Source of the DNA: Patescibacteria group bacterium
GTDB taxonomy: Bacteria > Patescibacteriota > Patescibacteriia > 2-01-FULL-39-33
DNA length: 64,000 nucleotides
Direction of reading: 5' to 3'
Assembly (NCBI GenBank): GCA_041650895.1
Contig: JBAZKF010000001.1
Location: 273,685 to 337,684, forward strand
The position numbers were made by a program, and so were the translations under genes. Positions 4,200 to 7,383 of the stretch are shown in pieces. Each line of letters starts with the position of its first letter. Position 1 is the stretch's first letter. The notes below the pieces were generated by a model that saw only the letters and a list, made by a program, of their open reading frames with translations, searched no databases and was not told the origin of the DNA.

Positions 4200-5102
4200 T
4201 TACAAATCAATTAGTGGATGCTTGGTTATTTGTGCCCTCAGGTGCTCGATATTGGCCGCCAAGTATATCGTCGTGGTCTTAATGTCGCTATGGCCCATCA
4301 TCTTTGCCAGTGAATAAATATCACAGCCGCCCTCCAGCATCAGTGTGGCAAACGTATGGCGTAGCTTGTGAATGGTGAAATTAATGCCTGAGGCCTCCTT
4401 GATACGGTCGACCAATCTCTTGAGGCCACTGGCCGTAAACCCGCCGTTTATAAACAGCGAGGTGAAAAATTCCGGGCAGGTTTTGTTCAGTTTTCGCCGC
4501 TCTGCGAGATACTTGTTTAATGTCTCCGCTAATTTGTAATTGATCGGCACCACCCTGTCCTTACTCCCCTTGCCCTGTCGGATAAATATCGACAAGTTCT
4601 CGATATCCACGTCAGTGAACTTCAGGTTTAGCAACTCCTTTTTTCGCAAGCCGGCCATAATAAACGTCGAGAAAATCGCATAATTGCGGTAACGCAGGAA
4701 TTTTTCCTTGTAAGGATAGTTATCTATCACTTCGAGAATTTTCATTGCTTCTTGCTTGGTCAGCTTCGGTGGCAATCGTTTTTCCAATTTCGGCGTCTCG
4801 ATGTCATCAATCGGATTGCCGGTCATATACCCCTCTTTGACGCACCAGCGGAAGAACACGGCCAGCGACTTGTGATAGCAGATGAAAGTGTTAGTCGTCC
4901 ATTTCTGCTGGGTACGGCCGTGATAAAACAAATTACGGACGTTTTCCTGACTGACCTGCTCAATATCCGTAATGTCGGATAATCTGGCGTAATAGTTGAT
5001 CACCTGCCGGTAGCGCTTGATCGTCGGCTGGGAAAACCCCTTGATGAACTTTGAATAATCAAAGAACTTTTGCGATAAAATTTGTATAGTCATAAAAAAC
5101 AC
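4200..5102 (-). CDS. Tyrosine site-specific recombinase / phage-type integrase
   Basis: C-terminal catalytic signature 'HKLRHTFATLMLEGGCDIYSLAKMMGHSDIKTTTIYL' (R..H-x-x-R...Y), N-terminal SAM-like core-binding domain. Immediately adjacent to the tRNA 3' end. Confidence 0.9.
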   Translation of the reverse strand: MFFMTIQILSQKFFDYSKFIKGFSQPTIKRYRQVINYYARLSDITDIEQVSQENVRNLFYHGRTQQKWTTNTFICYHKSLAVFFRWCVKEGYMTGNPIDDIETPKLEKRLPPKLTKQEAMKILEVIDNYPYKEKFLRYRNYAIFSTFIMAGLRKKELLNLKFTDVDIENLSIFIRQGKGSKDRVVPINYKLAETLNKYLAERRKLNKTCPEFFTSLFINGGFTASGLKRLVDRIKEASGINFTIHKLRHTFATLMLEGGCDIYSLAKMMGHSDIKTTTIYLAANIEHLRAQITKHPLIDL

Positions 5103-5133: not shown

Positions 5134-5397
5134 AGCCGTTGTGCGGATTCGAACCGCAGACCTACTCCTTCACTTATACCTCCATTTCAAAATTATATTG
5201 GAGGGTTAGACTGTATATCAAGCGTGGCAAATTATGCTTTAGCTTCCCTTGTCAGTCGTTCGGGCGATCGCTCGCCACGGTCTTAACCATTTCTGGCCTT
5301 TAACCGTAATTCGGGATTCAACGATTAGTTTCCTAATCGAGGGGCAAAACCTGTTCGGTTCACCATGGAGTTGCTCTACCAACTGAGCTACAACGGC
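5134..5397 (-). tRNA. tRNA-Thr (anticodon GGU) interrupted by an intervening sequence of about 191 nt in the anticodon loop (possible group I intron). Exons about 5360-5397 and 5134-5168
   Basis: Minus-strand 5' exon GCCGTTG-TA-GCTC-AGTTGGTA-GAGC-A-ACTCC-ATGGTGA. 3' exon GGAGT-AGGTC-TGCGG-TTCGAAT-CCGCA-CAACGGC-T. Anticodon stem ACTCC/GGAGT and acceptor GCCGTTG/CAACGGC pair perfectly only when the two halves are joined. CCA is not encoded. Confidence 0.6.
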
Positions 5398-5526: not shown

Positions 5527-5564
5527 TTACCATGGATGCGCTCTACCAACTGAGCTACAACGGC
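5527..5564 (-). pseudogene. Orphan tRNA 5' half (acceptor + D-arm + anticodon stem-loop, anticodon GGU) with no matching 3' half
   Basis: GCCGTTGTAGCTCAGTTGGTAGAGC-G-CATCC-ATGGTAA matches the acceptor/D-arm of the neighbouring tRNA-Thr. The required GGATG, T-arm and CAACGGC are absent in the following 130 nt. Confidence 0.4.
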
Positions 5565-6516: not shown

Positions 6517-7383
6517 TCATCGCCCGCTACCGAATAATTTAATTAAGCGTTCCGTTTCGGCGGCAACGGCGTCAATTGACGGTTTTAGAATTTGACGCGG
6601 ATCATAATGATTTTTTGGCGTGTCTTTGATTGTTCGCCTTAACTCTTGAGTGAAAGCGCGACGCAAATCCGTATCAATATTGACGATCCGGACGCCGAAT
6701 TTAGCGGCTGAGCGCAAGTCGCCATCAGCCAAACCGGAAGCGCCATGAAGCACTAACGGCGTCTGCGGAATCTCCTGCTGGATTTTCTTCAGCCGAGGAA
6801 AATCAATCTTTTCTTTACCCCGGTAATAGCCGTGCATAGTACCGACAGAAACCGCCAAGGTATCCACGCCGGTACGGCGGATAAACTCCTTCACCTTAGC
6901 CGGATCGGTCATATAGGTGTTGGGATCCTTGGGCACATTCTTAAGTACCGTACCTTCTTTGCCCAGCATTGCTCCCAACTCAGCCTGCGCCCAAACGCCA
7001 TGGCTATGGGCAAAAACCGCCGCTTTCTTGGTTAAAGCGACATTCTGCTCAAATGGTAAATCCGAACCGTCAATGTGGACGGAAGAAAATCCCGCTTTAA
7101 CACAATCGACTACAACTTTAAAACTATGACCATGATCCAAGTGAATAGCAATGGGTATTCTCTTGCCATCGGTGGTAGCAATAATCTTAATCAATTCCGT
7201 GATATTGGTCAAGCCGGCATATTTAATGGCGCTTTCCGAAACTTGAACGATCACTGGAGACTTTCGCGCCACCGCGCCGCGGATAATACCCAGTGTTACT
7301 TCTAAATTAGAGGTGTTAAAAGCGCCCAAGGCATATTTGCCTTGTTGCGCACCGTTAATAATTTTTTTGATATGAACTATCAT
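6517..7383 (-). CDS. fba: Class II fructose-bisphosphate aldolase
   Basis: Motifs 'IAIHLDHGHS', 'HGASG', and an N-terminal 'YALGAFN' typical of FbaA/TBP aldolase class II. Confidence 0.9.
   Translation of the reverse strand: MIVHIKKIINGAQQGKYALGAFNTSNLEVTLGIIRGAVARKSPVIVQVSESAIKYAGLTNITELIKIIATTDGKRIPIAIHLDHGHSFKVVVDCVKAGFSSVHIDGSDLPFEQNVALTKKAAVFAHSHGVWAQAELGAMLGKEGTVLKNVPKDPNTYMTDPAKVKEFIRRTGVDTLAVSVGTMHGYYRGKEKIDFPRLKKIQQEIPQTPLVLHGASGLADGDLRSAAKFGVRIVNIDTDLRRAFTQELRRTIKDTPKNHYDPRQILKPSIDAVAAETERLIKLFGSGR

Follow-up and report, generated by a model that had tools for sequence, protein, structure and literature searches.

The minus strand of a 64,000-nucleotide stretch of the genome of a Patescibacteria group bacterium (contig JBAZKF010000001.1, positions 273,685 to 337,684; hereafter the window) holds a tRNA-Thr(GGU) gene in two pieces. 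This gene, here called copy B, is interrupted within its anticodon loop by an insert of 191 nt. It is preceded on the same strand by an orphan 5' half of a second tRNA-Thr(GGU), copy A, and followed by a tyrosine recombinase (integrase) gene (Table 1). The insert belongs to a family of introns with a common group I fold that is backed by covariation. The segment 5397-5134 is very probably a functional tRNA-Thr(GGU) gene, split between nucleotide 36 of the anticodon and position 37 by a group I intron that lacks an open reading frame (ORF), and carried by an island that split the native copy, for which the gene most likely serves as a replacement.

The gene escapes the usual tools. By default, ARAGORN finds no tRNA anywhere in the 64-kb window, and the Rfam tRNA model has no match at the locus, even when the threshold is relaxed from gathering score to E<=10. 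When introns are allowed, ARAGORN reports exactly one split tRNA in 64 kb, at c[5133,5397]; given the joined exons, it calls tRNA-Thr(ggt) and draws a standard cloverleaf. A previous sequence-only reading of this DNA had described two tRNA-Thr(GGU) halves on the minus strand, separated by about 191 nt in the anticodon loop and forming a canonical 73-nt cloverleaf when joined. All of this is borne out by the sequence and by ARAGORN, and the halves lie where that reading placed them, although their edges had to be corrected to 5362 and 5170. From the window alone the splice boundaries are ambiguous owing to a repeat, GTGAA. Alignment of the family sets them at GGU↓G...G↓AAGG (arrows, splice sites), with U-1 and the terminal omega-G invariant. 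The hairpin directly 3' of copy B went uncalled in a terminator scan because its loop exceeds 8 nt; flanks homologous to those of the window follow the tRNA in four other loci (L063, L070, L084 and L086).

Table 1. Features of the split tRNA-Thr(GGU) locus and its surroundings, in window coordinates.
Feature	Position	Strand	Description	Basis or remarks
Orphan 5' half of native tRNA-Thr(GGU), copy A; left attachment site (attL)	5564-5527	minus	ends with anticodon loop AUGGUAA	
Island arm (P')	5526-5398	minus	129 nt, between crossover core and copy B	non-homologous to L002/L003; layout homologous to L084/L086 arms
Terminator-like hairpin in island arm	5491-5467	minus	UUUACCGCAG-AAUUA-CUGCGGUAAA and U run, ~35 nt after orphan half	hairpin scan
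Exon 1, tRNA-Thr(GGU) copy B	5397-5362	minus	GCCGTTGTAGCTCAGTTGGTAGAGCAACTCCATGGT: acceptor 5' strand, D arm, anticodon stem 5' strand, loop through GGU	sequence; ARAGORN -i; spliced product called Thr(ggt)
P1 hairpin	5364-5343	minus	exon GGU (5364-5362) with internal guide GCC (5345-5343)	splice-site wobble U5362·G5345
Group I intron	5361-5171	minus	191 nt, no ORF; starts after anticodon U36, ends with omega-G 5171	covariance model R1; covariation (23 sequences)
P2	5339-5322	minus	CGAUUAG-GAAA-CUAAUCG, GAAA tetraloop	compensatory changes in 7/7 pairs
P3 5' strand	5315-5313	minus	CCC; partner GGG 5248-5246, pseudoknot with P7	100% paired; C-G to U-A in L063, L070
P4-P5 domain	5307-5277	minus	P4 ACGGUU/GACCGU; P5 GCCA-GAAA-UGGU	P4 invariant, P5 covaries
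P6	5276-5263	minus	GGCGA-GCGA-UCGCC	alignment helix
P7, P3' and P8	5257-5209	minus	P7 5' strand GACUG 5257-5253, J7/3 ACAA, P3' GGG 5248-5246, P8 5245-5220, J8/7 GAUAUA, P7 3' strand CAGUC 5213-5209	P8 covaries
P9	5204-5179	minus	CCUCCA...UGGAGG	compensatory changes in 4/6 pairs
Exon 2, copy B	5170-5134	minus	AAGGAGTAGGTCTGCGGTTCGAATCCGCACAACGGCT: loop AA, anticodon stem 3' strand GGAGU, variable loop, T arm, acceptor 3' strand, discriminator	sequence; ARAGORN
Terminator-like hairpin after copy B	5121-5094	minus	ACACUGC-N9-GCAGUGU and U run, directly 3' of copy B	read from sequence
Tyrosine recombinase (integrase)	5093-4200	minus	297 aa from ATG 5093	Pfam Phage_integrase 1.4e-31; SAM-like N domain
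LOOT RNA (Rfam RF03000)	781-901	minus	between helix-turn-helix (HTH) and DUF4352 genes	77 bits, E 9e-13; only Rfam gathering-level match in window

By hand, the insert can be folded as a group I intron, and this fold was tested on an alignment of the window with 22 tRNA-Thr(GGU) genes that have a complete intron; L078, whose 5' part is masked by Ns, was left out. RNAalifold recovers the anticodon stem across the intron together with P1, P2 and P4 to P9, and P3 was added as a pseudoknot. The 11 helices comprise 50 pairs and are 97.9% paired across the 23 sequences, as opposed to 29-48% when the partners are slid. Both sides of the pair have changed in 26 of the 50, and none of 500 shuffles reaches any of these measures. 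The anticodon stem itself, whose strands are separated by the intron, is 100% paired in the 23 genomes, with compensatory changes in three of its five pairs. All three pairs of P1 (G-C, G-C and U·G) are invariant in 23/23 sequences, a C-G to U-A change backs the P3/P7 pseudoknot, and the omega-G at 5171 forms an invariant column that is followed by A(A/G)GG of exon 2. The segment GCTTGATATACAGTCTAACC, which had earlier been likened to the group I intron S element, is real and consists of the 3' strand of P8, J8/7 and the 3' strand of P7. In the majority of the family, L2 is GAAA and P8 contains CUAAG...UAUG, a combination that resembles the classical tetraloop-receptor pair. The P8 motif of the window copy is degenerate (CUAAAG...CACG).

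If the intron works as its fold suggests, the precursor RNA would fold into P1 to P9, with the exon GGU paired to the guide GCC and a U·G wobble at the splice site. An external guanosine would attack after U36, the terminal G (5171) would then take the G site, and exon ligation would give the loop AUGGUAA in a tRNA of 73 nt. An archaeal-type intron with a bulge-helix-bulge motif was also considered and ruled out, the organism being bacterial and the insert having group I hallmarks.

Relatives of the intron were sought with a pattern spanning P7 to J8/7-P7' (GACTGACAAGG-N15-45-GATATACAGTC) in IMG/VR viral contigs and GTDB genomes, where it matches 27 viral and 41 genome stretches. Twenty-three of the genome matches lie within tRNA-Thr(GGU) at the same site (...CC(A/U)UGGU↓intron...G↓A(A/G)GG...), and all but two of their hosts are labelled Patescibacteria or unclassified metagenome-assembled genomes. 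At least 25 of the Patescibacteria genomes fetched carry the same intron in tRNA-Thr(GGU), so the statement of the sequence-only reading that tRNA introns are rare in bacteria is not true of this lineage. The intron spans 187-217 nt in the alignment, with 187-188 nt in L042 and L040; at 191 nt, the window copy is shorter than the Azoarcus intron, which has 205 nt.

A covariance model (R1), built from 22 other sequences with the window excluded, matches the window at 5164-5371(-) with 206.7 bits (rough E 5e-70), and this is its sole match in 64 kb at E<=10. The same model matches two islands that were chosen by their integrase and not by the intron pattern, at ~179 bits, and about 30 sequences from phage contigs, at 97-138 bits. 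The assignment to group I in the sequence-only reading is thus supported by a family-specific covariance model as well as by covariation. The phage introns (~30 in IMG/VR) share the P1 guide (GGU↓...GCCC), the layout from P2 to P9 and the size of the window intron, but interrupt protein genes rather than tRNAs, and they are its nearest relatives outside tRNAs. In one phage contig (L025 6272-8159, the same in L035), three strong and one weak match to the intron model fall within 2 kb and one ORF, which grows from 156 to >350 codons when the three matches are removed; no PHROG family was found for the interrupted protein. A P4-P5 pattern gave seven matches in viral contigs. In a blastn search against 50,697 deposited phage genomes, there were matches to the tRNA exons and none to the intron. 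Island-borne and native introns are intermixed in a neighbour-joining tree, built on sequences that are too short to be decisive.

The four classical bacterial tRNA introns all belong to subgroup IC3 (Williams 2020), and a survey brought the known settings of intron-split tRNAs to 21, among them a catalogued Thr.5Ug class of group I-split tRNAs (Williams 2020, doi 10.1101/2020.01.27.920355). Some tRNAs in circularised genomes of the candidate phyla radiation (CPR) also have group I introns (Lui et al. 2021). With a Thr.5Ug class and CPR tRNA introns on record, this kind of intron is therefore already known. The IC3 introns of cyanobacterial tRNA-Leu(UAA) and tRNA-fMet, Azoarcus tRNA-Ile(CAU) and Agrobacterium tRNA-Arg(CCU) resemble that of the window in being small, ORF-less and located in the anticodon loop, with a P1 U·G wobble formed from anticodon nucleotides and a terminal G. 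The Azoarcus Ile2 and Arg introns also share the insertion at loop position 5 ("5Ug" in Williams' naming). However, the window intron interrupts a different tRNA, Thr(GGU), and its core sequence reads differently: P4 is ACGGUU/GACCGU, J6/7-P7 is CGAAC-GACUG and J8/7-P7' is GAUAUA-CAGUC, as against AAAUUCGGGGAAA, GUAGAGACUA and AAGGGAUAGUCC in the IC3 seeds. The differences in the P4, J6/7-P7 and J8/7 strings were seen by eye in the published seed alignment (Leu.3Ug, Arg.5Ug, fMet.2Ug and Ile2.5Ug). One of Williams' seeds, Rba53.Thr.5Ug, has the same isotype as the window, insertion after the fifth loop nucleotide, U-1, omega-G and the guide ggU/GCC, but an IC3-like core. Neither of two strings typical of the window family, GAUAUACAGUC and ACGGUUAAAG, occurs in the seed alignment or the model files of Williams 2020.

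How the gene probably came to lie behind a broken tRNA-Thr(GGU) is suggested by two close relatives, L002 and L003. They share with the window a flanking tetratricopeptide repeat (TPR) protein that is 91-93% identical and that places the organism within Patescibacteria, near Buchananbacteria. At this locus they have an intact, intronless tRNA-Thr(GGU) and then a tRNA-Tyr. Nucleotide homology of the window with both extends through the upstream genes and breaks off precisely at 5527, where the anticodon loop of copy A has its last base. Copy A comprises the first 25 nt of the tRNA (5564-5540), identical to copy B, and then GCATCC-ATGGTAA to 5527, where the tRNA ends; the same sequence forms the 5' half of tRNA-Thr in L002 and L003. 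The 5' half of copy B is likewise 25/25 identical to the relatives' tRNA-Thr, which itself scores 66 bits with the Rfam tRNA model, but copy B departs from the native gene in anticodon stem and T arm, each with its own matching partner. It appears that the insertion of an island took place in ATGGTAA, the 7-nt anticodon loop of a native, intronless tRNA-Thr(GGU), leaving the native 5' half behind as an orphan (5564-5527) without rebuilding the gene. Since the native gene would thus be split and not rebuilt, the intron-bearing copy is most likely the replacement tRNA.

Between the orphan and copy B lies the arm of the island, which has an AT-rich stretch ahead of copy B and no match to the intron model R1. 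The hairpin at 5491-5467 would stop transcripts from the native promoter (5608-5580) ahead of the island tRNA. The possibility that the DNA after the orphan is a decayed 5' part of the intron (UUGCCC and a hairpin) was ruled out, as R1 is blank there at E<=10 and the segment is homologous to the arms of L084 and L086. In L002 (11090-11310), L003 (11090-11470) and L080 (1020-1070), one or two units of ~170 nt follow the tRNA-Tyr; they start with ...GGGATTCGAAC... and end with a copy of the tRNA-Tyr 3' end (AAATCCCTCCCGGCCCA). There is no Rfam match to these units at E<=1, and they may be scars of other tRNA-Tyr integrations, or structured RNA.

The integrase gene follows copy B closely. The ORF list starts it at GTG 5102, but an identical protein (P0162, 297 aa, 100%) fits the ATG at 5093, just past the U run of the tRNA terminator. 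In viral contigs, only matches of 24-25% identity to this integrase were found, too distant to be informative. Past the integrase, the window carries cargo unrelated to L002 and L003: an ORF of unknown kind, a Ser/Thr kinase, an HTH protein, the LOOT RNA and a DUF4352 gene. The island is >8.6 kb long, with copy B at its left end, and a short-read contig carries its cargo 3 kb further, far end not reached. Its right junction would lie beyond coordinate 1. In the Logan assembly SRR8542065, from the same organism, the contigs break inside the duplicated tRNA 5' half and exon 2 (end of L001, start of L004).

The same arrangement recurs in other genomes. In nine loci with the intron pattern, the intron-bearing tRNA is preceded at a distance of ~160 nt by an orphan 5' half whose end is CCATGGTAA, and in all nine there is a recombinase match immediately 3' of this tRNA. 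Eight of the matches are homologues of the window integrase on the same strand as the tRNA; that of L056 is weak (24% identity) and on the opposite strand. An integrase homologue is found in 0 of the 12 informative loci without an orphan. A tRNA-Thr(GGU) copy inside the island, which in the window starts 130 nt in, is also present in 11 other islands. Three islands fetched by way of the integrase family settle how such an element is built. Both junctions can be seen in L086 and L087. The left one consists of the orphan 5' half (stem CCTCC) and ATGGTAA and leads through the arm into the intron-bearing tRNA and the integrase; ~7 kb of cargo and another recombinase gene come next. At the right one, an arm (...GGGTAGAGCTATTTA) adjoins ATGGTAA, which continues into the displaced 3' half (GGAGG...CAACGGCT), with tRNA-Tyr and conserved neighbours beyond it. 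Between the two displaced halves, the strands of the acceptor stem and of the anticodon stem are complementary. Tandem islands with arm-ATGGTAA-arm (P-ATGGTAA-P') junctions occur in L084 and L088; the two tandem islands of L084 are joined at 6659-6690. In these sequences the common core is thus the 7-nt anticodon loop; the host tRNA is not rebuilt, and the island brings its own tRNA-Thr(GGU).

The cargo varies by genome: kinase and LOOT RNA in the window, a type I restriction-modification system in L060 and genes resembling a diversity-generating retroelement (DGR) in L084. The cargo at L084 1-6900 includes bAvd and a reverse transcriptase (DGR-like) and a DUF4352 gene like that at 133-699 of the window. 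L063 (894-1402) and L070 (6032-6674) have in common an upstream tRNA-Thr(UGU), the intron-bearing tRNA-Thr(GGU) and the terminator, with 92% identity; the orphan half, arm and integrase are present in L070 and none of them in L063, which looks like a resolved or decayed island. This pair suggests that islands can be resolved, leaving an intron-bearing allele.

These comparisons bear on a different view of the locus, in which the intron-bearing tRNA is native, the orphan arose by a local partial duplication, and the recombinase is a housekeeping protein of Xer type with no island involved. We consider this unlikely. Against it stand an orphan that matches the relatives' 5' half exactly while copy B differs in its anticodon stem and T arm, homology to the relatives that ends at the anticodon loop, downstream cargo that differs between genomes, the displaced 3' half ~7 kb away in L087, and the tandem P-ATGGTAA-P' junctions in L084 and L088. 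What it does have in its favour is the recombinase family, which in Patescibacteria is strongly conserved and has a great many members (2131 homologues of the window protein at E<=1e-60, many of them 70-80% identical) and labelled "XerD" in the sources, along with an order of TPR gene, tRNA-Thr and recombinase that is kept in several genomes.

In its layout, the island at the window locus resembles tRNA-dependent lysogeny, described for actinobacteriophages in 2024 (Guerrero-Bustamante & Hatfull, mBio, PMC10865867). Both use a tyrosine integrase, an attB that overlaps a host tRNA and a short common core, ~10 bp in the actinobacteriophages (PMC10865867) and the 7-nt loop ATGGTAA here; the core is too short for the host tRNA to be rebuilt. 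The elements described here differ in being genomic islands of Patescibacteria with defence-like cargo or cargo of unknown kind. Moreover, the tRNA that the element brings usually has a group I intron inside the crossover core, unlike in the actinobacteriophage case. The intron interrupts this core as ATGGT↓AA and moves the 3' arm of the stem 191 nt away, so the intron-bearing gene should be unusable as an attachment site. This raises the testable idea of an intron that masks an attachment site. The intron could then be part of the island's strategy: the island would split the host gene and supply a replacement, and the intron would turn the island's tRNA, or a native intron-bearing one, into a dead attachment site, guarding against intramolecular recombination and further integrations, while the islands would spread the ORF-less intron between lineages. 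L063 would then look like an island of this kind that was resolved into a "native" intron-bearing gene. We put this forward tentatively and regard it as rather unlikely.

Several observations weigh against the account of an island-borne, self-splicing replacement gene. Only one junction of the window island is seen: its right end and the displaced 3' half are absent from the window and the 3 kb beyond. The displaced half is expected to read ATGGTAA-GGATGAGGTC, and the right end GGTAG..CT.TTTAATGGTAA, followed by GGATGAGGTCTCCGGTTCAAGCCCGGACAACGGC and tRNA-Tyr. A metagenome scan for this 3' half returned one intact gene only, a search for the right junction through the orthologue of the DUF6055 neighbour led to another organism (L081), and the P-arm motif is absent from the window. 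The tRNA copies in the L084 islands are intronless, so the intron is not obligatory for an island. The islands of L086 and L087 hold two recombinases, either of which is a candidate for the integration enzyme. Within the fold, P4 and P7 never vary across the set and thus provide no covariation evidence, the invariance of P7 being due in part to the use of a P7 pattern to select the set. Self-splicing of the window intron RNA, finally, is a prediction from sequence and fold.

A further point of this kind is the Rfam model Intron_gpI (RF00028), which the sequence-only reading had named as a check. It has no match between 4900 and 5800, either at gathering score or at E<=10, and the Rfam matches near the locus at E<=10 are small RNAs and microRNAs at chance level. 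The same model is blank in eight phage loci that hold relatives of the intron, and none of its 12 seeds is bacterial (Williams 2020, doi 10.1101/2020.01.27.920355). The failure of RF00028, which had been proposed as a refutation, is therefore not a valid test for this intron family, and we read it as a blind spot of the model and not as counter-evidence. The window intron is a member of a compact subfamily in the Thr.5Ug setting to which Rfam is blind.

If the RNA is group I-like and yet unable to splice alone, it would need a protein cofactor or leave the transcript by another removal pathway. A P3 of just 3-4 bp, the very small size of the RNA (191 nt) and the degenerate tetraloop-receptor-like motif in P8 of the window copy would fit such a dependence. 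All core elements are nevertheless there, from the U·G wobble and omega-G to P3-P9 and the GNRA loops on P2, P5 and P6, and no ORF in or beside the intron is conserved with it, which makes the cofactor reading quite improbable.

That the halves are decayed tRNA fragments, separated by a non-intron insertion such as a miniature inverted-repeat transposable element or a recombination scar and yielding no functional tRNA, is very hard to reconcile with the conserved and covarying group I fold of the family to which the insert belongs, or with exon pairing that compensatory changes have kept across the insert in 23 genomes. Copy B is also the only candidate tRNA-Thr(GGU) seen, since the native gene itself is broken. 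The fact that Rfam finds neither tRNA nor intron at the locus, and the truncated tRNA copy 130 nt upstream, would be explained by decay; we give this reading little credence. ARAGORN -i itself reads the locus as tRNA-Ser(UGA), the variable arm being long and an intron of 174 nt lying at 32/33, and takes CTCCA...TGGAG (the 3' strand of P9) as anticodon stem, but this call can practically be dismissed, as the 5' stem strand covaries in the family with the segment just ahead of the T arm, CCUCCA/UGGAGG covaries as the internal hairpin P9, and ARAGORN calls Thr(ggt) in most homologues and on the spliced product.

The locus has consequences for annotation. Default tRNA finders and Rfam miss the gene entirely, and genomes of the lineage will therefore appear to be without tRNA-Thr(GGU). 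Short-read assemblies break at the duplicated half, and such loci can be expected to lie often at contig ends, unannotated. The family adds natural group I introns by the dozen, ~180-230 nt in size and with a core outside the standard model. Introns common to phage protein genes and Patescibacteria tRNAs should serve well as minimal ribozymes and help to trace how introns are exchanged. The added interest of the window copy is its most likely role as stand-in for a native gene that its own integrative island has split, which would extend the logic of tRNA-dependent lysogeny, to destroy the host tRNA and bring one's own, to islands of ultra-small, mostly uncultured bacteria.

Two other groups of RNAs were encountered in the course of the searches. 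Lachnospiraceae/Clostridia genomes and phage contigs hold another type of RNA, whose likeness to the intron is limited to the P7-P8-J8/7 strings, with a match of 57 nt and a conserved long P8. It occurs at L039, L043, L045-L049, L057, L061, L068, L069, L071, L072, L075, L077 and L079 and in the viral stretches L012, L021, L033, L034 and L038, and several of these loci contain it in multiple copies. Its score with the tRNA-intron model is only 15-20 bits, and Rfam gives no match at gathering level. In Patescibacteria, the intron option of ARAGORN reports a tRNA-Asp(GUC) with a 253-nt insert (L040 5619-5946) and a tRNA-Met(CAU) with a 234-nt insert (L076 5246-5551). Neither insert is matched by the Thr-intron model at E<=0.01, so that further tRNAs of this phylum are probably split by introns of different families.

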